UHGV virus genome: UHGV-0098481
Origin: a virus
Reading direction: 5' to 3' (one strand)
Length of the DNA: 48,822 nucleotides
The position numbers and the translations under genes were made by a program. Of this stretch, positions 988 to 17,371 are shown one piece after another; the first letter of the stretch is position 1; each line of letters begins with the position of its first letter. The notes under the pieces are model-generated. The model was not told the DNA's origin. It saw only the letters and a program-made list of their open reading frames with translations, and made no database searches.

Positions 988-3900
988 ATGAAAAAAAATT
1001 CTTTAAATGTGATTTTGGATACTGTTTTCTCGGCGAAAAGCATCAATGGTGAGAAATCTCATTCTTTTATATCGTATAAATTAGTTAAAGCTGTAGAAAA
1101 TTTAAGTGGATATGACTTGGATCTTTTCCTCAATCGTGCGATAAACCATCCTAACTTCCCTAGCAATATGGATTTTTCCTTACGAACAGTTTTTACAATT
1201 GAACAATCTAACACTATTGAATTTAAAAATTTCATTTCAGAATTGGTGTGGTACAAGCATATTTTCATACGATATAAAAAACACCTTAATGATATATTAT
1301 CGGCAAAGGCAAGACTTGAGAAGTTAGTTCTTTTCGCAACAGGTAGTGAATGTATAAAATATTTAGATGAAATAGAAAGCTCTTATGGAGTTAGTTTTTG
1401 GAGCATTGATGCTCGTCTCTTAATAAATAAAGTTTTGCTTAACGAAAGCAATGGGTTATATGTTAAATCAATTCTATCTAAAACCCACTATAAACTTACA
1501 GAGTTTATGTTACAGCAGCTATTATTTAAGCATCAAGTACATAACTTTGATGATTTTTCAAAGAACCTTATAAAAATACTAGATGATATGCGCACCACTC
1601 AAGATAATGGGTATGCTAGAAATTTAGCTGATGGTATTTCATCCTTTTTAATACCTTTAGAGTTTGATAAAAATATAGATCTCAAAAATAGAACCTTAGC
1701 ACCATTTACCAACCTTCCTTTAATAGATCAATTTATCATATTCCAGAGAACTATAAGCGATTTACAACTTCATGGAAATGGTTTAAGAAATAGCGAGTTA
1801 AGCTTAATTGCAGAAATTAACAGCTTTATTAAAAATAACTATCTCAACAATATTTTAGATGGAAGAGAGCGTAATATAGAGAATATTGATGAACACTATA
1901 AAAGTGTTATTCGACGTTATACTATAGGTGATTATACTGGGTGTATTTCAGAAATAAATTCAGTTCGAACGCAGAAGACAATTTTGCCATTAATTGAAAT
2001 ATATGCAAAATCCCATGTGTATCTTGATAAGAAAATTTCAGACTCATGCATATTCAATAAATTAACAAACTGGCTTATAGCAATTATAAAATGCGACAGA
2101 CGCGCTGGAAAATACATCGATGAATTTGAACTTTTAGCATCTAAGATATATTTCAATTCAAATTCATCCTCTCTATTCTTCACATTATATAATTTAATAA
2201 GTGATAACCATAATAAATTAAACATATCTCGTATAAATCTAACCAAAAATGGTTCCTTTGTAACATCCCTTCATTTGAATATAACAATCAAGGAACTATG
2301 GACTGAACTTGGAATAAAAGAGAATGAGATACCAAAATATCGATTATTTAAATTCAAAGACCTAGCAAATCTATCCTTTGATGAAATCAAAAAACACTAC
2401 GAAGTATACAATGATAATGTAATAATTCGCTCTGAATATTTAAAAGATTATACTAACTTTTTATTAGAAAATGAAAAGTATGAATTATGCATCCAATTTA
2501 TAGCTGAAAACTGCATCGGCAACCCCGCAAATTATTACTACTTCCCAATCCGAAAAATAATTGATTTTGTAAAAGACAATATTTTTGACTATGCAAGCGT
2601 GGCCTTATCTATATTGATAGATATTTTTGTCAAAAGCACATCAAACACTTCAAATGAGCTTCTTCTCGAAAGTTATGAGAGTTTAGTAGATATTTCAAAT
2701 ATTAATAGGCCATCTACCCATTATTGCTCTAAGCAATTAACTCCATTAGAGCACTATTTCCTTAAGTTTATCTGTATACCTTCCGTGATGGATTCAGACC
2801 CTTCATTCACAGGCACGGACGACTTGAAGAAGGAAAGAATTGCTATTATAGATCTATTATTAAAAGAACACGATGATGCAGATTTATTGAAAGAGAAAGA
2901 CGAAATTATAGATGAAATATCATTCGAAGAAATAAAAACAAAATATGAGACAGGAAAAATATTTGTTGATATAGAAAATTTAAAACGGGCAAAGCTTGAA
3001 AGATACAGATATTATTTTGATGCACTTAAGGATTCGCTTATTCTCGGACTAGAACCACCTGAAGACTTTGCTTTAATTACAGACGATGGGAATATCACAG
3101 CCATTCCATCTGGCGATACAAACTCTATAATCCATGAACTTCTAAAAGAACTAATCTCCGATTTTGTTAAAAATGAAAATTACGGTCTTGATAAATATTT
3201 GAGTGCAGATATACGGCATGGTGTTTTTGAAAATCAACTCAGATCAAGTGCTGAAAAATCGCAATTAATAACTGATATGGATGGTACTGGACAGTATTCG
3301 AAAAGCAATTTAATTATTGAGACATATCCATTAATTAACCCTATTATAAATAACGAAATAGGGACAGCAATAGCTGATTTCTCTTATCACTTTGACATTG
3401 AATTGGCTAAAGCCAATTCCTGGTTCAATGTCAAGACAATGCTCATAAGTGAATCACAGCAAGGTATGATTGATTTCCTCATTTCTGTTGATATGTTTAA
3501 TTCATTTAAAGCAGCAGTTTCAAATCAAGCATCTTTTGAGAAGTTTTTTGACGCTTGTATTAACTTCATGTGGGAAAGAACGTTCAGATGTTTGAATGAT
3601 ATTAAAGAGCGATTGCATTACGAATTTAAGAGGAATATTTTAGATTTAATTGCCACTCTTAGGCATCAAATTGATATCTATAGAAGACGTAGTTCCATGA
3701 GAGAAATCCAGGAGAAAATTGACCTCTTGGCCGAAAGCATTAATAAAGAAATTGCAACAGTCTGCGATTGGTTAAATGTACTTGAGTATAACGAGGAGAA
3801 AATATATAAAATATCATCCGTGATGCAGGCATGTAGGAAAACTTTTTTTAATATACACCATTGTTCTGATGATGCTATCGTTTTTGATTCAATGTATCAT

Positions 3901-4263
3901 GATGATGAACCAAAATTATCTTATAAAGAAGCCAAGCCTCTAATCACATCAATAATAACAGCGTTAAACAATGCTATGGCCTATGGTAATAAAAAAATCT
4001 TTATCAGTATTAAGCCTGAAGAAAAGTCATGGAAAATAACCATCAGAAATTTGATAATTGAGACAAAGAACAGAACTACCAACCAAATTTTACAAGAGAT
4101 TGATGATAAAATAAAACGAGGGGATAATAGTCTAAATATAAAAGAAGGCGGAGCTGGAATATATAAAATATATGATTTATTATGTTCATTACCGCAAAGA
4201 TTTAATGTGAATCATTGCATCCAAAATAACGAATTCATTTTAAATATTGAGATAAAGAAATGA
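988..4263 (+). CDS. Large soluble sensor protein with C-terminal histidine-kinase-like ATPase motifs (DtcA-like)
   Basis: 1091-aa ORF, strongly AT-rich; C-terminal N-box-like ALNNAMAYGN and glycine-rich G-box-like EGGAGIYKIYD; no obvious TM segment; first gene of a translationally coupled three-gene operon. Confidence 0.6.
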   Translation: MKKNSLNVILDTVFSAKSINGEKSHSFISYKLVKAVENLSGYDLDLFLNRAINHPNFPSNMDFSLRTVFTIEQSNTIEFKNFISELVWYKHIFIRYKKHLNDILSAKARLEKLVLFATGSECIKYLDEIESSYGVSFWSIDARLLINKVLLNESNGLYVKSILSKTHYKLTEFMLQQLLFKHQVHNFDDFSKNLIKILDDMRTTQDNGYARNLADGISSFLIPLEFDKNIDLKNRTLAPFTNLPLIDQFIIFQRTISDLQLHGNGLRNSELSLIAEINSFIKNNYLNNILDGRERNIENIDEHYKSVIRRYTIGDYTGCISEINSVRTQKTILPLIEIYAKSHVYLDKKISDSCIFNKLTNWLIAIIKCDRRAGKYIDEFELLASKIYFNSNSSSLFFTLYNLISDNHNKLNISRINLTKNGSFVTSLHLNITIKELWTELGIKENEIPKYRLFKFKDLANLSFDEIKKHYEVYNDNVIIRSEYLKDYTNFLLENEKYELCIQFIAENCIGNPANYYYFPIRKIIDFVKDNIFDYASVALSILIDIFVKSTSNTSNELLLESYESLVDISNINRPSTHYCSKQLTPLEHYFLKFICIPSVMDSDPSFTGTDDLKKERIAIIDLLLKEHDDADLLKEKDEIIDEISFEEIKTKYETGKIFVDIENLKRAKLERYRYYFDALKDSLILGLEPPEDFALITDDGNITAIPSGDTNSIIHELLKELISDFVKNENYGLDKYLSADIRHGVFENQLRSSAEKSQLITDMDGTGQYSKSNLIIETYPLINPIINNEIGTAIADFSYHFDIELAKANSWFNVKTMLISESQQGMIDFLISVDMFNSFKAAVSNQASFEKFFDACINFMWERTFRCLNDIKERLHYEFKRNILDLIATLRHQIDIYRRRSSMREIQEKIDLLAESINKEIATVCDWLNVLEYNEEKIYKISSVMQACRKTFFNIHHCSDDAIVFDSMYHDDEPKLSYKEAKPLITSIITALNNAMAYGNKKIFISIKPEEKSWKITIRNLIIETKNRTTNQILQEIDDKIKRGDNSLNIKEGGAGIYKIYDLLCSLPQRFNVNHCIQNNEFILNIEIKK

Positions 4264-4709
4264 AAATTCTTCTTGTTGAGGATATTGAATATAAGCGTGA
4301 TAAGGTGATCGGTTTACTAGAGTCTATTTCTGCCGATGTATCAGTCGATGTAGCTAAATCTTATGTTTCGGCAGTAAATTCCGCAACCAGTAAAACTTAT
4401 GATCTTATAATATTAGATATGAGCCTTCCCACTTACGATAAGGGGCCTAATGAAAATGGAGGTCGCTTCAGAGTGTACGGAGGGAAAGATATTATTCGCA
4501 AGTTAATGAGAGGAAAAGAGCATCCAGTAGTTGTGGTTTTAACACAACATACAACTTTTGGTGAAATTGGTGAGCAAAAAAATACTGACACTCTATCACA
4601 AGAGTTGAATGCTTTAATGGGATCAAAATTTATAGGTATTGTAAAATATGACTCAACTAAACCTCAATGGAAAGATGAAATAAAAAAAGTCGTACAGGAT
4701 TTGTTATGA
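4260..4709 (+). CDS. Stand-alone receiver (REC/CheY-like) domain protein (DtcB-like)
   Basis: 149 aa; MKILLVEDIE acidic pocket and LIILDMSLP phospho-acceptor Asp motif; start overlaps upstream stop (ATGA). Confidence 0.75.
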   Translation: MKILLVEDIEYKRDKVIGLLESISADVSVDVAKSYVSAVNSATSKTYDLIILDMSLPTYDKGPNENGGRFRVYGGKDIIRKLMRGKEHPVVVVLTQHTTFGEIGEQKNTDTLSQELNALMGSKFIGIVKYDSTKPQWKDEIKKVVQDLL

Positions 4710-5869
4710 TTAAAATATTAATAGTTGATGACAATAAATCTAGAATTGAAAAGCTAAAATCTAGCTTAACTGAACTCATCACAAAAAACATGATAAGGAT
4801 TGATGAGAAATATACAAGTGACGCCGCAAAAATCGCGCTCAAGTTAAATCAATATGATTATTTAATTCTTGATGTCTTTTTACCTAAAAAAGATAACTAT
4901 AGCCCAGATGAAAGAAATGGATTAGGTCTTTTAAAACAAATAAATTCAGATTCTAAATTTTACTCTCCAAAAAAAATAGTTGGCATAACTGCATATCTGA
5001 ATGATATATCCAGATATGAATCCGAATTCAGAGAATATGCTTCAATTATATTCGAGGCTCGACGTAATGATACTGGATGGCTTGAATCACTCAAAAAAAT
5101 CATTGAAAAGGATGTTGAATCTCAAGTAAGTTATAATCTCAATGAAAAAGATAGTGTTTTAATAACAGTACACGGTATAAGAACCTACGCACCTTGGCAA
5201 AATACCATAGAAGAAAAAATAACCAATATATCAAATAAATTTAACTATATAAAATTCAATTATGGTTTTCTAAATATTCTTTGTTTTTTATTCCCTCCGA
5301 CTAGACATCTATTTGCAAGAAAAATAATCCAAGACATACGAATTACAGTGGAATCAAATAAGAATAAAAGAATTTATATTATTTGTCATAGTTTTGGTAC
5401 CTACCTTGTATATTGTGCCTTAAGTAAACTGACACATACGGATGCAAAAATTGAATGTTTAATTTTTTCTGGTAGCGTATTAAAACGTACTACCTCATTG
5501 AAAACATTAAAGCAACATTGTAATGCAATAATAAATGACTGTGCTGTAAGTGATTATATTTTATTACTATGTAAAATGTTAGTCATTGGCTTGGGCGATG
5601 CAGGCAGAAAAGGGTTTATTGAGCCAAATGATGGTGTTTTCATTAACCGCTATTTTAAAGGAGGACATTCAACTTACTTCGAAGATAAAGATTTCATAGA
5701 AGTGAACTGGCTTCCTTTAATTTTTGACAATAAAAATATCGCGTCACGAGATGAAAGAAAAAATCATATTTTTTCCGATGTCACCAATGCTTTGCAAAAT
5801 ATAATTGAATATTTAAAAATACCAATATGGTTATTTTTTTCTTTTTTATTGATAGCACTGGTATTATAA
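4706..5869 (+). CDS. Receiver domain fused to alpha/beta-hydrolase-like effector with C-terminal hydrophobic anchor (DtcC-like)
   Basis: 387 aa; N-terminal REC motifs (ILIVDDN, LILDVFLP); downstream VHGI and nucleophile-elbow-like ICHSFGT; C-terminal IPIWLFFSFLLIALVL; start overlaps upstream stop. Confidence 0.7.
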   Translation: MIKILIVDDNKSRIEKLKSSLTELITKNMIRIDEKYTSDAAKIALKLNQYDYLILDVFLPKKDNYSPDERNGLGLLKQINSDSKFYSPKKIVGITAYLNDISRYESEFREYASIIFEARRNDTGWLESLKKIIEKDVESQVSYNLNEKDSVLITVHGIRTYAPWQNTIEEKITNISNKFNYIKFNYGFLNILCFLFPPTRHLFARKIIQDIRITVESNKNKRIYIICHSFGTYLVYCALSKLTHTDAKIECLIFSGSVLKRTTSLKTLKQHCNAIINDCAVSDYILLLCKMLVIGLGDAGRKGFIEPNDGVFINRYFKGGHSTYFEDKDFIEVNWLPLIFDNKNIASRDERKNHIFSDVTNALQNIIEYLKIPIWLFFSFLLIALVL

Positions 5870-6348: not shown

Positions 6349-7314
6349 TTAGAATGGTTTGTTAATATTAATAGATTTACCATTGATATCTTTTGACACC
6401 TTAAAAAAATCTATACCTTTTATCCACTGACATAACTGTTGTAGTGTTTCCATTGCCTGTTCTAACTCATTTTTTTCAATTCTAACGCCCCCATGATGGC
6501 TACAGGAATTTAATAATTCCTGAGCTAGAGTGATGTCATTCTTCAGCTTATTAGGCAGACCGAGAAAATTAATCACCCTCGACAAACTCCCAAGCATTAA
6601 CTTTTGATAGTCTTCTTCAAATTCCTTTTCAGCCCTAATATTTACTAACATCAAAACATACTCAAGATAACGCCGTGCTGTATTTCCCTTTTCTTGTAAC
6701 GCATCTCTATCATACTCTTTAATATCACTCAATTCCTGTAGTAGAAAATCAAACTTAGCTATTGCCAAGTTAAGATTGATGTTATGCATTAGCAATTCGG
6801 ATGCATGATTGCTAACAGGTACACGATTTGGTGGACGTATCATTATAGCCGTCGTGTAACAATTTATATTTGGTATCTGTATAAATTCCTCACCGGAACG
6901 CGTAACACGTTGAACTTCTACCATATAGTGGCCAAATTTATCAATCTCATATGACCGACAACGAGCAGAATATAATTTATTTAGCTTTTTCCTGTCTTGA
7001 TAATATGATTTTATTAATACAAAAAATGCTCTTTCGTGCTCAATAATTAAAATAGTCTCTATTGAAGCATGGTACAACCATCCGTTATTCCATGTTAATT
7101 CAAGCTGTCTATTTCCATCTTTAAAATCAATTTTAGTTATACGATCCCAACTTCCTCTATCAATAAAATCGACAATATTGCGCCCAAATCCTTGATAGTT
7201 ATTTTTAACAATGTGCAATAGTACTGCCTTTATTTTATCCCAATCATGAATTTCTTTTTCATATTCACCATTTAATATATTCGTTAAATCACTGTGAAAA
7301 TTTTCATATGTCAT
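6349..7314 (-). CDS. Hypothetical island cargo protein (321 aa), function unknown
   Basis: Long AT-rich ORF directly downstream of the island integrase; no motif I can assign. Confidence 0.6.
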   Translation of the reverse strand: MTYENFHSDLTNILNGEYEKEIHDWDKIKAVLLHIVKNNYQGFGRNIVDFIDRGSWDRITKIDFKDGNRQLELTWNNGWLYHASIETILIIEHERAFFVLIKSYYQDRKKLNKLYSARCRSYEIDKFGHYMVEVQRVTRSGEEFIQIPNINCYTTAIMIRPPNRVPVSNHASELLMHNINLNLAIAKFDFLLQELSDIKEYDRDALQEKGNTARRYLEYVLMLVNIRAEKEFEEDYQKLMLGSLSRVINFLGLPNKLKNDITLAQELLNSCSHHGGVRIEKNELEQAMETLQQLCQWIKGIDFFKVSKDINGKSININKPF

Positions 7315-7415: not shown

Positions 7416-8600
7416 TCAATTGACATCATTACCAATTCTTCCAATGCAATCAGCATACCACTGCATCATCTCCCTCCGCCCTTCCAGATACAAAGCATGG
7501 TTGTACGTCCCACGAATCGCATTCTTATCGACATGCGCAAGCTGGGTTTCAATCCATGCCGTATTGAACCCTTCCTCGTGCAAAATCGTACTCATCGTGT
7601 GACGGAAACCATGCCCCGTTACCTTCCCCGTATACCCAATCCGTTTGAATACCTGATTCATACTCGCTTCACTCATCGTCTTGCGGGGATCATTTCGCCC
7701 TGGGAATACCAGTGGATATTGCCCAGATATCACCTTGAGTTGTTGTACGATTTCCAGCGCTTGGGTAGATAGGGGGACAAGGTGAGGCCGTTTCATCTTC
7801 ATACGCTCTGCAGGTATTTCCCACACTGCTTTTTCAAGATCAAACTCACTCCAGAAAGCACCTCGTAGCTCGCCAGTACGAACTCCTGTAAGGATCAGCA
7901 GACGAGCGGCAAGAACAACTAACGGGCTTCCTGTGTAGCCTGCGAGAGCTTTAAAGAAGTCTGGTAACTCCTCAACAGTAAGGAAGGGATAATGCTTCGA
8001 TTCATGCCCTGACATTGCGCTGGTTAGATCCGCTGCAGGATTGTATTCCGCACGACCGGTAACGATGGCGTAACGAAAGACTTCACTGCAACGCTGGCGA
8101 ACCTTCTTGGCCTTCTCTGTCGCGCCACGGCTTTCCATTCGACGTAGCACATTCAGCAGAACCAAAGGCTTGATGTCATTCACCGGCAGTTGGCCAATAT
8201 AAGGGAAAATATCTTTATTGAAGGCTTCGATAATGTCGGAGGCATAACCTTCTGACCACCGGCTCACCTTCGTTCCGTGCCATTCAAGTGCCACAGCCTG
8301 AAACGTATTATTGAGCTGCACATCGCGAACCAACTTTTCTTCTTTCTTGGCAAACGATGGGTCGATACCTTCGGCCAGCTTTTTCTTGGCTTCATCACGC
8401 AGTGCCCTCGCTTGTGCAAGGGACACTGCCGGATAGACACCAAAAGCCATACGTTTCTCTTTTCCATTGAAGCGATATTTCATCCGCCAGTATCGAGAAC
8501 CAGAAGGAACAACTTCAAGATACAAGCCTGCACCATCTGCTAGCTTGTAGGCTTTCTCTCTGGGTTTAGCAGCATCTACCTGTCGAGCATTAAGCTTCAT
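7416..8600 (-). CDS. int: Tyrosine integrase, P4/CP4-type
   Basis: ORF 7416-8639, start taken at MKLNARQVDAAKP with AGGGAG upstream; C-terminal catalytic region with R...HGFRHT...Y pattern; immediately downstream of the tRNA 3' fragment on the same strand. Confidence 0.85.
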   Translation of the reverse strand: MKLNARQVDAAKPREKAYKLADGAGLYLEVVPSGSRYWRMKYRFNGKEKRMAFGVYPAVSLAQARALRDEAKKKLAEGIDPSFAKKEEKLVRDVQLNNTFQAVALEWHGTKVSRWSEGYASDIIEAFNKDIFPYIGQLPVNDIKPLVLLNVLRRMESRGATEKAKKVRQRCSEVFRYAIVTGRAEYNPAADLTSAMSGHESKHYPFLTVEELPDFFKALAGYTGSPLVVLAARLLILTGVRTGELRGAFWSEFDLEKAVWEIPAERMKMKRPHLVPLSTQALEIVQQLKVISGQYPLVFPGRNDPRKTMSEASMNQVFKRIGYTGKVTGHGFRHTMSTILHEEGFNTAWIETQLAHVDKNAIRGTYNHALYLEGRREMMQWYADCIGRIGNDVN

Positions 8601-8764
8601 TGGGGGCATCTCCCTGGACCGAACACAGAATGCCCCCACTTATGCCCCCAACTGCGACTTGATTTCGGTTGAGTCCAGTTGATAACAGGAGATAAGATAC
8701 GGGCCAGAAACCGCAGTATACGGGCTTTTAGTTGATTTCGGTAGACTTGGGAAGAGTTTGAAAT

Positions 8765-9144: not shown

Positions 9145-11850
9145 CTACATTGCCATTAATATAAACATAGCCAATTCGTCATAACGAATTCCGTAGCGTC
9201 CTCCTGCTTTTTTTACAAGAATCATATCTCCTGTTTTATATTGAGAATAAATTTTCTCACCTGTATCAGGATCTGTGCTCTCTTCAGTTATCACCTCTTC
9301 ATCCCATACGTCAGGCCATTCATCGTAACACCAAAAAGCATATTTCTCAGGGTTTAAACCATGCTTTCTAAGAATATCCCCTACGGTTTGAGCGCCAACG
9401 CCAAAATGATACCTGGACGACTCAATTCCTTTGTGATTAATTGAGTCATTAAATTTAAATTTATAGATGACTGACTTTATTTCAATAGCGGCATCACGCT
9501 CTGCATTAAGAATATCATATCTTGTTTTAAGAGTTTCATCTGATGTATTGATTGACCCGGTTCCTGCATAAATAACAGAGCATCTGTTTGATGGCTGTCC
9601 AATAGCTTTAACATTATCATCAACAGGAGCTATTTTATTAGCATCTGCCAACCACCAGTCTGTTCCATCAGCGTGACCGATTCTTACTCTTATCCCACTT
9701 CTAATATTTAAACTTCCAGTATTACTCTGTAAATTACAATCTCCTGACGTTGGTCCAAGCAGTACAGTTTTACCAACACCACATACTACTCTGGCATTTC
9801 CTTTTTGTGATACGAGTCTTGACTCACCTCCTGACTGCTCAGGAAGAGATTTATGGTCTATAAATGCATCGCGGGGGTTAAATACACCGTCTCCAGAATT
9901 ATATCTTCCTCCTGTATAGTTGTTAAATACAGGACCCCAGTCAACGCCATTGCCTTCAGAGCACCCGACCATTCTAAGCACTCGAGTATTCCCTGCTGCA
10001 TATGGTAATGAGCTTGTTGATTGCCGGGAAGCTATCATACGTGCTCCATAACCAATAGCATTACCACCATTTATAGTTACATATGCTTGCTGGCTTTCGA
10101 AATATGTACTGTAAAAGTTCATATTTCCACAGTCATGTAGATGAATAAGAACATCATCCCATCCCTGAATGGTTCCTGCATGTACCTGTACACCGCGAAC
10201 TGGTTCCCCTGAAACCTCCATACACTCTGATGGTCGGCTGAATGGTTGAGACAGGTATTGCGATGTGGCAAGCAGATGTGTGTGGTGATACAGGCTGGTA
10301 ATGTAGCAATCGAAAAATTGCGTTCCCGCCATACCAAAGTTATCTATGTCATTTCGCCGTATAGTAGAACCTACTGTTGCCTCAGAAGCGTTAGACACTC
10401 CAGTAAATACTAACTTATCACCGGATACGGATAATCCTGAATAAGTGAAATTCCTGCCTCCAGATCTTAAAACCCCGGACGTTTCGAAGGTGTGGCTTGC
10501 TGACCATGGGATTTCGATAGTGCTGGACGTTACCGCTGTAATTCGGAATACATCATGGGCGCGGATCGAAACACCCTTGAATCCCTGGAATCTACAGTGA
10601 TAATAGTTTTCATCCTCGCCCTGAGCAGCCAGCGTGTCAGATACAGGAATGTTCGTTTTTAAAAGTGCCGTCTTGCGCCAGTATCCAACCACCTGCAAAT
10701 TGCGGTATTCATTGCCAAAAGACGCACGTGACCAAATACCTACATCCCACTCATCGCCAAGACCGGTATTTGCAATGTCTTTATAACCATCCAGACCATT
10801 GAAATATGGAACAATACGAAAGTTCTCAAGGCGAACACATCCTGTCTCAGGCATCAATATTGCGGCAGAGAATGGTTTAAGCGTGGCTCTTGTAGTCCCA
10901 TTAGCATCACCGTTAGTAAAATCCAATAAATCATATGATGACGCAGGTGCCGTTGTTGTATACGGGTCTTCGGAAGATGGATTAGAAACCACACCACCAC
11001 TAACATCCATATTAGAAACACAATCTACAGTATATTTTTTATTTCCTACCCCGTACATCAGGAATGTGGTCCCTGTGGTAATATCAGGAGCAAATGTTGC
11101 AGTATATCCTGAGACCCATTTGCCCACACCAAGACAAATTATCCCACCACCAGAAACAGGTGTTAACGTATCCGTTATTACATACGCATTATCAGTACCA
11201 TAAATAACCTTTCCTGTGTTAAGGGCAGCTTGCCACGCGGCCCAGTCTATTGACTGAGATAATGAGTCAACAAAAGGATATAAGGATTTTGCTTCAGAAA
11301 TTGAAGAAAACCACTCAGATAATGGATGATATTTCCCATCCCCAATTGCTCCAAATTGTTTTACATTTAAGAAAAGAGCATTGTTTTCATGCTGAGTTAT
11401 AGTTACAGCCCCGGTAAATGGCTGCCTTACCCCAATTAATGCATCACCTTTTGAATCATCATTAATGTATGCTCCTGATTGAGATAACTGCTCTTTGAAG
11501 TCTGGGCCAAACTGATCTGGATCGTATTTTAATACATTTGGAAAATAGAACTGCTTCGCACCATACGCATCATAAACAGCCATAGAATGGCCTTGCACAG
11601 TTACGAATTTGGCAATCTGTCCGTTATATACCGGATAACCAGCAGCGTTAATGATGATTGGTTGAGAAACAGGAACGTGAGAACCGTCTTCGTTCTCTAC
11701 ATAAACCTGAATCCGGTTTTCTGGATTTACCGGGTCAGCGTCAATTTTACCGATATAAATTTTTCCATTGGCAACCGCTTTAAAAGAACGCGCCATAGTG
11801 AAGAGTTGCGAAGGCATACTCACTACAACATTGGCTGTAATGTCTGTCAT
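9145..11850 (-). CDS. Tailspike protein: P22-like N-terminal head-binding domain, divergent receptor-binding body, C-terminal chaperone-like domain
   Basis: N-terminus [11 protein letters not shown]...[12 protein letters not shown]...VQGHSMA...LKYDPDQ closely matches the P22 gp9 head-binding domain; remainder unlike P22; C-terminal ...[11 protein letters not shown]... resembles auto-cleaving intramolecular chaperone domains. Confidence 0.85.
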
Positions 11851-11918
11851 TTAATTTGCTCCAGATACAAGAAATCGCCGCAGCATTGCCACAGTGATGC
11901 ATTATTAATCAAATAAAG

Positions 11919-11933
11919 AGACCGCTGTGGTCT
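11919..11933. promoter_or_regulatory. Operator-like inverted repeat AGACC-N5-GGTCT between divergent mnt and tailspike starts
   Basis: Dyad in the 146-bp intergenic region; form is similar to the P22 Mnt operator as remembered. Confidence 0.35.
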
Positions 11934-11996
11934 TATTGAGGATGCAACCAGCAGATAATAAGATGCCGATCCACTCACAAAAGCGAGGCATCAAGA

Positions 11997-12248
11997 ATGG
12001 GAAGAGATGACCCGCAATTTAATCTGCGGCTACCTTACGAATTAAAGGAAAAACTAAAACAGCGAGCCAAATCCAATGGCCGCTATCTTAATTCAGAATT
12101 AGTTCAGATAGTGACTGATGCTGTATCAAAGCCATCCAAAATTTCAGGCTATCGAGACGATGCGGAACGCATCGCTGATGAGCAGTCTGAACTTGTTAAG
12201 AAGATGGTGTTTGATACGCTGAAGGATTTGTACAAAAAACCCACCTGA
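11997..12248 (+). CDS. mnt: Mnt repressor (Arc/MetJ-type ribbon-helix-helix)
   Basis: 83 aa, near-identical to P22 Mnt as remembered (…RLPYELKEKLKQRAKSNGR…DAERIADEQSELVKKMVFDTLKDLYKK). Confidence 0.85.
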   Translation: MGRDDPQFNLRLPYELKEKLKQRAKSNGRYLNSELVQIVTDAVSKPSKISGYRDDAERIADEQSELVKKMVFDTLKDLYKKPT

Positions 12249-12262
12249 CGGTGGGTTTTATT
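12240..12262. terminator. Bidirectional rho-independent terminator between convergent mnt and the putative toxin gene
   Basis: cccacc-tgac-ggtggg hairpin flanked by A-run upstream and T-run downstream. Confidence 0.65.
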
Positions 12263-12680
12263 AGTGCTTGTATAGGTTGAACTCTCTATCAAGCCATATA
12301 ACAAAAAATGTCGATCCAAGACGATAACCAACCATGGCTTTCAAATCATCAAATCTAAAAGCCAAGAAATGATCTACGTCTTCCGTTATATGACTGGGGA
12401 TACCTGCTTTAATTGCACCCCTTGCAATCTTCTCAAATCCAAGCTTATGCCTACCTTGCTGCTTAATATCTGCCCATGTTAGTTGACTTAATCTGTATAA
12501 TTTATCAGCTAAGCCAGCTTTCTCATCTTTTTGGCATTTCGTTATGCAGTGAGAGCTTTGGATGTAACAGAATGAAAATTTCGGTTTCTTTTGATCTGAA
12601 TTCCCCCCTGACTGCGGCCCTAACTTTAACTTACCTGTAGATTCAGCAGGGGGGATAATCCTTTTAGATTTTCTTGCCAT
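12261..12680 (-). CDS. Hypothetical protein, candidate toxin partner of the Panacea-domain protein
   Basis: ~139 aa from MARKSKRIIPP...; starts 4 nt after the upstream ORF stop; basic N-terminus; no family assigned. Confidence 0.5.
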   Translation of the reverse strand: MARKSKRIIPPAESTGKLKLGPQSGGNSDQKKPKFSFCYIQSSHCITKCQKDEKAGLADKLYRLSQLTWADIKQQGRHKLGFEKIARGAIKAGIPSHITEDVDHFLAFRFDDLKAMVGYRLGSTFFVIWLDREFNLYKH

Positions 12681-12684
12681 CTCG

Positions 12685-13134
12685 TTAGTTAATCCGAGTT
12701 GCAAAGTACTCTGCCATCTCCTTAGAACTAATTTCAGAACCACCAACACCCTCAATATAGTTTGATCTCCATGGTGACTCTTCGTGTGTCATGTTCCTCA
12801 GTTTCCAGGCAGAAAATTGCCCAAAAACATCCCAGACTTCTTCTAATAGCTCTAACTGTTCTTCGCTGAATTTTTCAGCATCAAAAGACTCTGGAGAAGG
12901 GATAGCACCATTACCATATTGTTTATAACGGTGATAAAGCTCAGGGACAACAGGGCCATGCATCCAAGCTTCCATCTTATTCTGAAAAAGAGGCTCGCCA
13001 AGCAACGCCAATGAAAAACCCTGAGCATAGTAAACAAGCTTTTGTAATTTTAAATTAGAGATTGCGTCACCGCTATCCTCGTCACACCGCGACAGGAAGT
13101 AGTCGGCGACATCAAAACAAGTAAGCATGAACAC
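12685..13134 (-). CDS. DUF4065/Panacea-domain protein (SocA-like antitoxin family)
   Basis: 149 aa; LKLQKLVYYAQGFSLALLGEPLF...EAWMHGPVVPELYHRYKQYG pattern typical of the phage-associated Panacea domain. Confidence 0.7.
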   Translation of the reverse strand: MFMLTCFDVADYFLSRCDEDSGDAISNLKLQKLVYYAQGFSLALLGEPLFQNKMEAWMHGPVVPELYHRYKQYGNGAIPSPESFDAEKFSEEQLELLEEVWDVFGQFSAWKLRNMTHEESPWRSNYIEGVGGSEISSKEMAEYFATRIN

Positions 13135-13502
13135 ACCTCCATCTTGATAGCCACAGCTAAGTATCCAACTATGTCAAATGTCATTTAATACTATAACAAA
13201 GCTATCAGCAATCCTTCTGAGGCTAACTTACAACCACTTTAGCGACATGTTTAAACCATTACGTTTCACATTTACTGCATTTTCGCCGAAGTTACCTATA
13301 AGGTAATGTCACATTTCCTGCAAGTTTCATGCAATGTTGAAAAGTGAGCTATTCACTTTTCTATGACACCAAACACCAAAAATAGCACTTTTTGCTAAAT
13401 CATTCGTCCAAGTTGTGGATGGTTTGTCGTTGACACGTTTTCACACACCACTCCACCAATAAAGTATCATCTGGTATCCTGCTCAAAACTAAGGAGGTTG
13501 GT

Positions 13503-13832
13503 GTGCTTGAATGGTTTCTGTTGGCTGCATTAGTCGTTTCTGGTTTGGTGTATGAGTATCGAATGCACTCTCTAACAAAAAAAATAGGAATTCTAGAAAA
13601 CGAATATTGTGCTCTCAAATCCTCACTGGAACGTGAGCAAGGGGACTTAAAAATCTCTCTGTCTAGCATTGAGCGTTCTATAGAGAGCTTAGAGGATAAG
13701 GTTGATCGTATAAAGAATGAGGATATTCATGATATTAAGGACGACATATCCTTCTTAAAATCTTGGTTGAAAAATGTTGGGAAAATTGCCACATCAACAC
13801 GAGATAAGCTCAATCCATCCATGGATGACTAA
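13503..13832 (+). CDS. Small membrane-anchored coiled-coil protein (moron in the sieA-equivalent slot)
   Basis: GTG start 5 nt after AAGGAGG; N-terminal TM helix (WFLLAALVVSGLVY) then heptad-rich region; convergent with gp16. Confidence 0.6.
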   Translation: MLEWFLLAALVVSGLVYEYRMHSLTKKIGILENEYCALKSSLEREQGDLKISLSSIERSIESLEDKVDRIKNEDIHDIKDDISFLKSWLKNVGKIATSTRDKLNPSMDD

Positions 13833-15968
13833 TTACTCCTGTGCCATTCCGCTTAGTGATGCCACAATTCCAGCCCTTGCTAAACGCTGGAACTCTTCGT
13901 TTCCTAGTGCCTCGCGTATTGCTTTTACGGCGGCCTTATTTGCCATAAATCTGCGTTCCGCCGCCGCTAATGCACCATCACTTGCCCCAACCTTAACGGC
14001 CTTTGTTGCCTCTTGAACAGCCTTTTCAATAGCGTAACGACCACTTCTAGTTGCGGATAATTTCGCTATCGCTCCTTTTGCCATTGCATCAATTGCTCCA
14101 CCTGCAGCGCCACCCGCTATTGCTCCAATAACGCCTCCTCCAGAGAACCCTGCGATAGTGCCAGTAGTTCTAAAAGCGCCAGACAATGCGCTCTCTAAAA
14201 CTGGATGAAGGCCATTCTCAAGAGTGCTAATGGCTGGCATAGATCGCCCTGTCTGTTCAACATATCGAAGTGGCTTTGTTGCTGCTCGTGCAAGTTCTCC
14301 GTATGAACTTGTAATCCTGCCAAGTTCTGGAGAATATCGACTAATTGCCTTCACGTTTTGTGGGGTAAGAATAGTCGCGATATGCTTAATTCCAGCCTCT
14401 TCAGACTTACCTCCGCGTACCCCTTGCGACATTGCATCTTGTAATATTGATGCAATTGCTGGCGCGCGTTCCGACTCAGGTAGGGCGCTTATTATTTTAT
14501 GGAACTGACCTGTTCCACTTTTTGCTGAACCCTGTAACGCCTTAGATCCATTAGTTACCAACTGATCAGTTGCAAGGTCTCTACCAAACGCTGCTTCAGC
14601 CTGTTCTTGTGCTGTAAATCTTGCCTTTGACAGATCATTAGCTTTTTGCCAGTCATCAAGAAAACCACCATTTTGAGCCATTATGCGCATATCTTCCGTT
14701 GCTGCATCACGAAGCTCAGCCATGCGCCTTGCCGTATTTGCCTCACCAGACCTTATATACTTCTGCTCTGCGTCAGCAAGTTTACTTCGCCATGCCTTCA
14801 TGGCATCAAACGTGATTCCTTTTTTACCAGTTTTAGCATAAGCAGATGCGAATTGTTTCATCTCAGGAGTTAGCGGCATGCCAGCCAAAATATCACCCTG
14901 AATTGTAGCGTTCAGGTTTGACATTCTGGCCTTTGCGTCAGGCATCGTGGAGCGAACGCTATCCCATGCGGCCTTTTCTGAATTTTTCATTTTATCAATA
15001 CTTGCCAAAACCCTTTGTTTTATGGCTGCACTTTTTTCTGATGCAGTTCCTGCTTCAGCCCCAAACTCATCCAATGCTGAGTTAAATTTCGACTCTATTT
15101 CACTGAATGCTTTGGTGTGTGCATCCTGTGTAATTCCGGGCTTTGACGCCAGAATCCCCTCCGCCTGAGCAAGACCACGACTACCTGATCTCATGCCAGG
15201 AGTTAATGCGTTGATATCTATTCCAGCAGTATCTGCTGCTTTTGCTATTTCTTCTGACACATTAGCTGACTGTCTGGCGATAATCTCTCTTCCTGTACCA
15301 GACTTTGCCATTTTCGAAACATCAGCAGCGGAATTTATTGCCCCGCCACCAAGAACTTGAGGTGATTTAGAGGTTAAGATCCTTCCAGCCCCAGAAAGTA
15401 TCCCCTGAGCACCAATATTGATACCACCGTTAATGGCAGCATTTTGTGCAAAGTCGCCCTCCTGATTTGCAGCATCAGCAAGAGAACCTGCAATCATGTT
15501 TCCTGCGGAACCGATATCTCCAGCGAGCTTTGCTGGCGCTCCAGCAGCTTTTGCCGCTGTGCCAATTGGCAGGAGATACCCACCAATTGTTTCACCGGCT
15601 TGCGCGTAAGGGTCTGTCGGTCGATCGACAGGACGATAGACATCATCCAATACTTTTGGCCCACCAAGCCCCTGACTGATTGCATTAATCAGACTTGCGC
15701 CACCCTGCAATACGTCAAATGGTATGTTTACCAGACCACGACCAGCCTGTTCTGCAATTTGCCCTGCACTTTGACCACCAGTGAGCCAATCGCCAGCTTG
15801 TTGCATCAATGATGGTTCTTCCCGTGTTGGTGCATTATTGGCCTGATTAACTGTTTGTTGCTGAACAGCCTGACCAGCAAAATACTCATCAATGGCGGTG
15901 CCAATATCTTCGGTGCTCGTACCATCAGGAAAGGTAAATGTCTTACCGTTTGCAGTTACTTTCATCAT
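13833..15968 (-). CDS. Ejection protein gp16-like
   Basis: Position and size in P22-type gene order after gp20; Ala/Gly-rich. Confidence 0.75.
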
Positions 15969-17371
15969 TCCACCGTAAATTGAATGCCTGATTTTGAGGT
16001 ATATGATCCAACCTGATTCCGTGGTTCTCCTGAAGGTGTCGAATCTTGTGCTGGCGCTGCGTCAGTATTCATTGACATATACCGCTTAACGGCACTCCCC
16101 AATGATTCACCTTTTTTAACATCCAACCCCAATATCTGACCGCCATTACGCGATTGTCCAGGGTTGCCATTCGCGCTCATCCACTCAGCTTTAAACTCAT
16201 TAAACTGCGCGTTTCGTCGCTCAAGGTTTGCCATTGCATCAAGCCATCTTGCGACCGTCTCAGGGTTATCCATGTCAGTTGGCGCACCCTGTCGAACGAT
16301 CTCAACGTCTTTATCCGTTGCTGGGCCGGGAGGTAGGAATTTAAGAACCTGACTGTTAACAAGGGCATTTTGGCGAATGCGCAAATCACGCAATGTCGTA
16401 TCGCTTCCGGTAAGTTTTGCGAACATGTTCTGTGCGTTACCGAACAAACCGGTCGTTGGTTTTTCTGCTCTGAACTGTTGAGCAAGCGCACTCATGGAAT
16501 TGGCTGAGTTTGATGATGCTGTGGCATTGTTTACAGCCGTCTCGATGCCTTTTTCCATGTTTACTGACAGCTTAGGTGCTTCGCTAATCAACTGCTGAGC
16601 CTTTTCCTGCGCTTGCTGCATCTTAAACCCGAACTCTTGCTGATCCAGAGCCAAGCGTTGTGCTGCGATATTGTGCCCAGTCATTGCTGACTGATAGGAA
16701 AGGTTTTGCCCTCTCGCCTGAAGTGCTTCACCAGCCTGATTGCTGCGGATTGTCTCTACCAGTCTGCCTCGGTCAATCTCACGACCAGCCATCTTGTCCT
16801 GAACATTGAAGTAGTCAATCGGACCGAGAGCAGCCATCCCAAGGTGATCAACAAACTCACCAAATCCTGAAGGGTTCTGCTGATACATCTGAGCAACGCT
16901 GTTAGGGTCAACACCGACGCGAGTCAGTTCCTTGGCGTTGTTTTGCAGCCATGATTGCATTGCTTCTGGAGACGATGACGCAAGGCGTGCGCCAGCCGCT
17001 AAGGTGCCGATAGAATTGCGCTGGTCTTCATCAATGAATCCCATGCCTTTACGAACGGATTCAATCTGGTCTGGATATTGAGTAGCCAGCTGACGCAAAG
17101 CACCGCGATCACCAGACGCATAAGCATTAGCGTATGCCTGCTGAAATTCTTTCTGCCGCTGAGCCTGCTTTTCCTGCTGAAACACCCCCGCAATACCTGA
17201 AAGGCCTTGCAAAGCAGTCAGCCCAACATTGTTAGCGCCTGAACGCTCAATATCATTGTTCTGTCTGATAAGCTGAAGCGTATTGCCGATGTCATTTACG
17301 CTCGGAGCGTTTGAGTTGACACCACCGATACCAGCCAACAATCCGCCATTTGTTCCTTGCCAAGTAGCCAT
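15965..17371 (-). CDS. Ejection protein gp20-like
   Basis: 468 aa, synteny with P22 gene 20. Confidence 0.75.

Follow-up and report, generated by a model that had tools for sequence, protein, structure and literature searches.

Stand-alone Panacea domains neutralize by direct binding (PMC10440598), and the GPV motif of the domain has been reported to be critical for neutralization (PMC8832971). A further role, in which Panacea may act as a sensor, was proposed by Ernits et al. (PMC10440598). In Dataset S1 of Kurata et al. (2022), which catalogues PanAT pairs of a Panacea antitoxin (PanA) and its partner (PanT), approximately 217 rows belong to PanT cluster T1, one of the two largest clusters; among these is the pair from Salmonella phage vB_SemP_Emek, entered as T1, `noNTD', antitoxin first and located in a phage (PMC8832971). 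The C-terminal region of NsnC has been described as PB-BECR1, an RNase domain that resembles YafQ and carries an H-R-H triad; it is predicted to be the effector of Menshen, a system validated by experiment (PMC12065111). In phage P22, the region beside gene 16 contains sieA, orf59a and mnt and is dispensable for growth; sieA, which the prophage expresses, serves to exclude superinfecting phages, and its product, the membrane protein SieA, prevents the injection of DNA (PMC10883804). Here, we describe a two-gene PanAT-type locus at positions 12261–13134 (minus strand) of UHGV virus genome UHGV-0098481. Within the whole stretch of 48,822 nucleotides (nt) that was analysed, hereafter the window, lies a P22-like (Lederbergvirus) prophage, the late genes of which are on the minus strand.

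Judged by its sequence, the pair is already known as a catalogued and tested PanAT pair. Emek YP_006560565.1 and PanA are 100% identical, and the sequence of the partner is that of the final 139 residues of Emek YP_006560566.1. The published Emek entry is that of a predicted PanAT pair, not of a validated one. The reading that we favour, tentatively, is that the locus is a PanAT-type module with a latent RNase of the RelE fold, which would be restrained by PanA and released by a cue, giving the lysogen an exclusion of the abortive-infection type.

The Panacea protein and its partner

The initial annotation had described a pair of genes on the minus strand, separated by 4 nt and located between gp16 and the tailspike gene, the upstream one encoding a protein with a Panacea domain (DUF4065). 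The coordinates and the layout are right, as judged from the open reading frames (ORFs) and the sequence, and the domain was recovered by profile search. Pfam PF13274 (SocA_Panacea) matches PanA with E = 8.1e-25 and 88.4 bits (cut-off 25.7); the match spans residues 30–122 of the protein and positions 1–112 of the 113 in the profile, and the GPV signature motif is found in the translation (WMHGPVVPELYH). A length of 149 amino acids had been given for this protein. The minus-strand ORF at 12685–13134 does encode 149 residues if it is read from a GTG codon, but on sequence grounds the start of panA is most likely the ATG at 13128, which gives a gene at 12685–13128 (minus strand, stop codon TAA at 12685–12687) and a stand-alone Panacea-domain protein of 147 residues. 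The ATG was preferred because the spacing of the Shine–Dalgarno sequence GGAGG (13136–13140, minus strand), which is kept in phage EC.P3, suits this codon (7 nt) and not the GTG (just 1 nt). A length of 147 residues is also that of 10 of the 15 listed members of the PanA 90% cluster, and relatives have 143–147 residues. PanA is acidic, with an isoelectric point (pI) of 4.6, and has no room for an extra helix–turn–helix (HTH), PAD1 or ZBD domain. Against the NCBIfam SocA_antitoxin equivalog it scores 70.4 bits (cut-off 190). As it lies far under this cut-off and has no extra domain, we regard it as a stand-alone Panacea protein and not as SocA. The RefSeq name for the upstream gene is already `Panacea domain-containing protein'.

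The partner gene lies at 12261–12680 (minus strand) and encodes 139 amino acids from the ATG at 12680. The spacer between the panA stop codon and this ATG (12681–12684, minus strand), read from the sequence, is 4 nt long and has no good Shine–Dalgarno sequence, so that translational coupling of the partner is likely. The partner is basic (pI 9.7), and the split between an acidic PanA and a basic partner is typical of toxin–antitoxin pairs. A database search gave 180 relatives of the partner, nearly all of 134–145 amino acids and all unnamed, and an exhaustive profile search gave 1,557 cluster representatives of the family at E ≤ 1e-3, with 864 at E ≤ 1e-10. In the family alignment Met1 is invariant, and the conserved set consists of R77, H78, G81, E83, K84, R109, G118, Y119, R120, W129, D131, Y137 and the C-terminal H139; every one of these residues occurs in the window protein.

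An AlphaFold2 model of the partner was built on the family alignment and is confident, with a predicted local distance difference test score of 88.7. It consists of a disordered basic tail (about residues 1–30) followed by a helix–helix–four-strand core, which is the BECR fold of the RelE/ParE superfamily. The top Foldseek matches of the partner are RNase toxins of the RelE/YoeB/YafQ fold, with weak statistics (E > 0.08, none at E ≤ 0.001). Positions 178–279 of the 284 in the PADLOC NsnC model are matched by residues 31–135 of the partner with E = 4.3e-6, and the C-terminal part of the same model is matched by all 51 sampled relatives (best E = 1.9e-10). NCBIfam MAG6450_fam is weakly matched by 47 of these 51 relatives; a literature search on MAG6450 gave no functional information. 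From the model and these matches the partner is a RelE-fold protein, probably of the RNase type. According to the initial annotation the 139-residue protein matched no family that could be named. This stands for Pfam, in which a scan returned nothing at E ≤ 1 and no RelE-family model, but the protein can be named as a member of PanT cluster T1 with the RelE/YoeB/YafQ fold, the PB-BECR1 domain of NsnC and a weak relation to MAG6450_fam. At the sequence level, no match of the partner to a curated RelE, YoeB, YafQ, HigB, Gp49 or ParE family was found. Alignment of the partner family in hhalign with an approximate YoeB sequence gave no alignment, and a Foldseek search of the partner against viral predicted structures gave nothing significant.

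Recurrence and mobility of the cassette

The panA gene and its partner recur together in relatives, always with PanA first and with gaps of approximately 4–35 nt (mostly 4–14 nt). They are found in a P2-like prophage of Aeromonas, where tail gene S and baseplate gene V flank them, in a Solidesulfovibrio prophage, on a cyanobacterial contig beside the type I restriction subunit HsdR, at the end of a Morganella prophage beside dinI, on a Pantoea primase-bearing island and in Pseudomonas temperate phages. With a gap of 4 nt and with the pair kept in six groups that differ in their neighbours, the locus has the features by which Kurata et al. recognize a PanAT locus. That the two genes form a pair, as had been proposed, is borne out by the antitoxin-first order and the close spacing conserved across unrelated elements, and by the position in a variable accessory slot of the prophage.

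The coding pair was found in 48 of 5,426 complete Escherichia coli genomes (0.9%). Both ORFs are intact in 46 of these 48 genomes and in all phage copies; the other two carry a C6-to-C7 frameshift in codons 9–11 of the partner gene. A diverged allele is present in phages EC.P3 and E212 (70% identity for PanA and 57% for the partner). Compared with the EC.P3 allele, the nonsynonymous divergence (pN) of the two genes is 0.20 and 0.34 and the synonymous divergence (pS) is approximately 0.81, at which synonymous sites are saturated; as pN is far under pS in both genes, panA and the partner gene are under purifying selection. The part of the partner that has diverged most between the alleles is the N-terminal tail. 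Published models of stand-alone Panacea put the unstructured N-terminal region of the toxin at the interface (PMC10440598). On account of this divergence and of these models, the tail is a reasonable candidate for the element that determines the specificity of PanA binding.

The whole mobile cassette, made up of the terminator, the partner gene, panA and a 370-bp upstream region, was delimited by megablast to 12231–13505 (minus strand). Its identity is 99.8% to Salmonella phage vB_SemP_Emek and 99.4% to Escherichia phage phiv205-1; the matches to these phages begin at 12231–12235 and end at 13505, and the flanks vary among phages. In other Lederbergviruses, the cargo that lies between this terminator and the gene adjoining gp16 is unrelated, namely a PEGA-like protein of 139 amino acids in Gally and a P63C-domain protein in 611R6.

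On the tailspike side, the cassette ends in a GC-rich hairpin at 12236–12259 (−15.8 kcal/mol, z = −3.9), with a run of A before it and a run of T after it. Besides closing the gene pair, this hairpin terminates the convergent mnt gene, the last codons and TGA stop codon of which come from the hairpin, with the TGA in the loop. It is annotated in Emek as a rho-independent terminator. The A-run and T-run flanks make it plausibly bidirectional, in agreement with the bidirectional terminator of the initial annotation. A simple promoter and terminator pattern scan overlooked this obvious terminator, and an Rfam scan of 11900–13900 gave only sub-threshold matches, on the hairpin. The hairpin is common to Emek, which has the cassette and no adjoining mnt, and to Gally and 720R6, which have mnt and no cassette, and it therefore behaves as a recombination joint.

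The non-coding region between panA and a divergent gene for a protein of 109 amino acids spans 370 bp (13135–13505). An AT-rich region of 370 bp had been reported here; the region is present but is only modestly AT-rich, as its GC fraction of 0.39–0.40 is ordinary for the accessory region as a whole (0.45–0.52 in gp16 and gp20). It presumably carries divergent promoters, and contains a 14-nt direct repeat (13266–13279 and 13309–13322) and a perfect 9-nt inverted repeat (13339–13361). The region is 93–100% identical to that of EC.P3 in most 60-nt segments and 85% identical in two, and the identity (13100–13505 in the window, 3393–3780 in the EC.P3 locus L008) breaks approximately ten codons into panA. 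We read the combination of a near-identical upstream region and diverged genes, from the sequence comparison, as a cassette-style replacement of alleles between conserved joints. Comparison with the Morganella, Pantoea and Aeromonas loci showed no conservation of the 370-bp region, and a conserved RNA or regulatory element in it was rejected on this basis. Because these distant loci differ, the identity to EC.P3 is better explained by recent shared ancestry or recombination.

The late genes gp20 (15965–17371, minus strand) and gp16 (13833–15968, minus strand) lie on one side of the cassette. On the other are mnt (11997–12248, plus strand; Arc and Repressor_Mnt domain matches) and the tailspike gene (9145–11850, minus strand), the product of which has the P22 head-binding domain (Head_binding match). 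The initial annotation had placed the pair in the accessory slot of P22-like phages. The slot is variable and additionally contains mnt and the plus-strand 109-residue gene (13503–13832). The product of the latter (phrog_5962, no Pfam match) is a membrane-anchored coiled-coil protein with an N-terminal hydrophobic helix, and its gene adjoins gp16, where P22 has sieA. The conserved 370-bp region is bounded on its right by the ribosome-binding site and GTG start of this gene, and the ORF behind this start varies by phage (109 amino acids here, 129 in Emek and 75 in EC.P3).

The tailspike protein of 901 amino acids has the P22 head-binding N-terminus, with no Pfam match at E ≤ 1e-5 over the remaining ∼790 residues. 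In phiv205-1 (locus L009) and EC.P3 (L008), a gene for a ClpP-like protease-domain protein of 178 amino acids (1942–2478 in both loci) follows mnt on the same strand and precedes the PanA cassette; this gene is not in the window. Towards the start of the window, a three-gene operon (988–5869, plus strand) matches components A, B and C of the PADLOC candidate defence system PDC-M60 with E = 4.5e-55, 2e-35 and 1e-22. Its products have 1091 amino acids, 149 amino acids with a response-regulator receiver domain, and 387 amino acids. It is followed by an ORF of 321 amino acids of no named function and a P4-type integrase gene, which occupy 6349–7314 and 7416–8639 (both minus strand). The stretch from the PDC-M60-like operon through the integrase looks like a separate integrative island that abuts the prophage.

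Published toxicity tests and competing explanations

In SI Table S1 of Kurata et al., the family prediction for the Emek T1 protein is `mRNase' (an HHpred label), the toxin is listed as `not toxic' and the neutralization entry is `n/a'; the T1 pair of E. coli MOD1 is likewise `not toxic' (PMC8832971). Toxicity was tested by induction from pBAD33 in E. coli BW25113 (PMC8832971). The T1 protein of Clostridium cadaveris was toxic in E. coli (PMC8832971), which supports the favoured reading of the partner as an effector. The literature search turned up neither a later test of T1 PanAT pairs in phage defence nor further functional studies of phage Emek. The Panacea profile, the GPV motif and the conserved two-gene architecture identify the locus as a PanAT pair in silico; as far as the published data go, it falls outside the experimental definition of a toxin–antitoxin pair.

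The form of the Emek protein that was tested is the 161-residue annotation, which starts 22 codons upstream, inside panA, with the extra residues MVVLKLVLRRWQSTLQLGLTNE. This extension lies over panA by 62 nt, in agreement with the −62 nt overlap in Dataset S1, and is absent from all relatives. From the geometry of a −20 nt overlap, and not from an accession, we infer that the E. coli T1 construct is a 147-residue annotation with eight extra residues (MQLGLTNE). In relatives from other genera the protein starts at the equivalent of the ATG at 12680, and a stop codon closes the upstream frame 2–16 codons before it; the N-terminal extensions are therefore artefacts of an open frame. The native 139-residue form is apparently absent from the published toxicity tests. 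The negative result nevertheless keeps weight, as eight residues on a disordered tail are a weak excuse for a complete loss of activity. The initial annotation had named the 139-residue partner as the candidate toxin; in print the identical Emek protein is nominally not toxic, a result that is weakened by the extended constructs. Overall, the observation made in the initial annotation is confirmed and its interpretation is partly supported.

In the mechanism that we favour, the P22-like prophage carries the pair as a self-contained cassette in its variable accessory slot. The acidic, stand-alone Panacea protein is encoded by panA, and the downstream gene, which is probably coupled to it in translation, encodes a basic protein of the RelE fold. 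Because its core shares a domain family with the C-terminal effector of Menshen NsnC, the partner would most likely act as an endoribonuclease that targets translation. We propose that PanA holds the partner inert by binding it directly, probably through the fast-evolving N-terminal tail of the partner. The partner may be a latent effector that needs a cue, and not a constitutively lethal toxin, since the identical protein was harmless to growth when overexpressed. The partner might then be released or activated by a cue, for instance when another phage infects the cell, with Panacea as the sensor, and the cassette would give the lysogen exclusion of other phages of the abortive-infection type.

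Several results weigh against this mechanism. The first is the listing of both the Emek and the E. coli T1 proteins as `not toxic'. The cognate PanA of the toxic C. cadaveris T1 protein did not neutralize it (PMC8832971). The partner drew no RelE-family model from Pfam, and no PDB sequence was matched at E ≤ 10 by a profile of 51 relatives. The Foldseek statistics in favour of the RNase toxins are weak, as given above, and the partner's active site was assigned from conservation and topology, not from a structural superposition. Expression of the pair in the lysogen is assumed, as a consensus scan gave no sigma-70 site within the 370-bp region. In a PADLOC scan panA itself had no match, and the pair is not represented as a defence system by any PADLOC model.

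A more specific form of the favoured mechanism is that the partner is harmless even without PanA and becomes active only when Panacea senses a phage component, so that the locus would be a minimal prophage-borne abortive-infection system with an effector domain shared with Menshen. We consider this form possible but doubtful. If it were true, it would explain why the tested enterobacterial T1 members fail the classical toxicity test, and the locus would provide a first clear example of Panacea serving as a sensor and not as a plain antitoxin.

The published tests can also be taken as construct artefacts, in which case the locus would be a classical type II toxin–antitoxin module with a partner that is constitutively toxic once PanA is lost. 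The N-terminal extension of the Emek construct and, probably, of the E. coli construct would then account for the negative results; this agrees with the lengths of the relatives, the invariant Met1 and the closed upstream frame in other species. The candidate catalytic residues of the partner are intact, the C. cadaveris protein is toxic, and the gene order, spacing and charges are typical of type II systems. However, the short extension of the E. coli protein, on a disordered tail far from the core, is unlikely to abolish activity, yet this protein was non-toxic; the test host belonged to the native host genus; and PanA lacks a DNA-binding domain through which the usual autoregulation could act. 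We judge this explanation to be unlikely.

A third explanation takes the lack of toxicity at face value. The partner would be a RelE-fold protein that does not inhibit growth, and the pair would serve the phage cycle, by tuning translation or mRNA decay in lytic growth, or would have a counter-defence role in which PanA neutralizes toxins of the host. The two genes lie between gp16 and the tailspike gene in the orientation of the late operon and would be read through with it, the consensus scan gave no promoter of their own, and both published tests of the enterobacterial T1 clade were non-toxic. For counter-defence, Panacea can evolve to neutralize non-cognate toxins (PMC8832971). However, the strict co-occurrence of PanA and its partner in prophages, satellites and a restriction–modification neighbourhood favours a self-contained pair, relatives sit at varied positions and orientations in prophages, and the RNase-type residues are conserved. 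This explanation appears to be quite unlikely. That the pair is a passenger without current function, neutral or in decay, and represents a mosaic remnant shifted by recombination at conserved flanks, is very improbable: it would be in line with the frameshifted partner genes and the rarity of the cassette in E. coli, but not with the intact ORFs in nearly all genomes and all phage copies, with pN far under pS despite saturated synonymous sites, or with the well conserved motifs in the 1,557 representatives of the family.

The swapping of anciently diverged alleles behind a near-identical upstream region is a pattern common for immunity and defence cargo. The pair itself adds little to what had been catalogued, and its residual value is as a well defined test case for Panacea partners. 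What is added here is the corrected start of panA, the explicit link from cluster T1 to PB-BECR1 and thus to the Menshen effector, the allele-swap pattern in P22-like phages, and the spurious N-terminal extension in the Emek construct and, by inference, in the E. coli construct. Taken together, these leads make the proposed role of Panacea as a sensor directly testable in a tractable E. coli/Salmonella phage, and interest in the pair would rise if the native partner proved to be a trigger-dependent RNase.

Comparison with known systems

The locus is closest to the PanAT T1 entry itself (PMC8832971), which is the same pair with no sequence difference; the published entry uses the 161-residue start. 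The resemblance to the RelE, YoeB, YafQ and HigB toxins is one of fold, as the identity of the partner to them is only 6–13%. The partner differs from RelE-type toxins in its extra disordered tail of 30 residues and in a strand and a helix before the core. Its cognate is a Panacea domain, whereas RelE-type toxins use RelB, YefM, DinJ or HigA.

The partner and Menshen NsnC have in common the predicted YafQ-like RNase domain, in which His/Arg/His are conserved. Unlike NsnC the partner stands alone, with the disordered tail where NsnC has its inactive-PIN N-terminal domain, and it is paired with PanA, by which it is proposed to be controlled. Neither NsnA (a DUF262 ParB-like protein) nor NsnB (an ABC ATPase) is encoded among the neighbours panA, mnt, the 109-residue gene and gp16; as both of these and the inactive-PIN domain are absent, membership in Menshen was rejected. 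The Menshen paper makes no mention of Panacea or DUF4065 (PMC12065111).

SocA of SocAB, a type VI toxin–antitoxin system of Caulobacter, carries the same Panacea domain, and the Pfam family is named after SocA. SocB falls in PanT cluster T10, whereas the RelE-fold partner described here falls in T1. Identity with SocAB was rejected, because the partner is not SocB and PanA scores under the equivalog cut-off, and an action as a ClpXP adaptor is not indicated for PanA.

The sieA–orf59a–mnt region of P22 occupies the same genomic position and carries the same kind of cargo, with unrelated proteins. In contrast to the P22 region, the cargo here is cytoplasmic and toxin–antitoxin-like, and it lies on the strand opposite to mnt.

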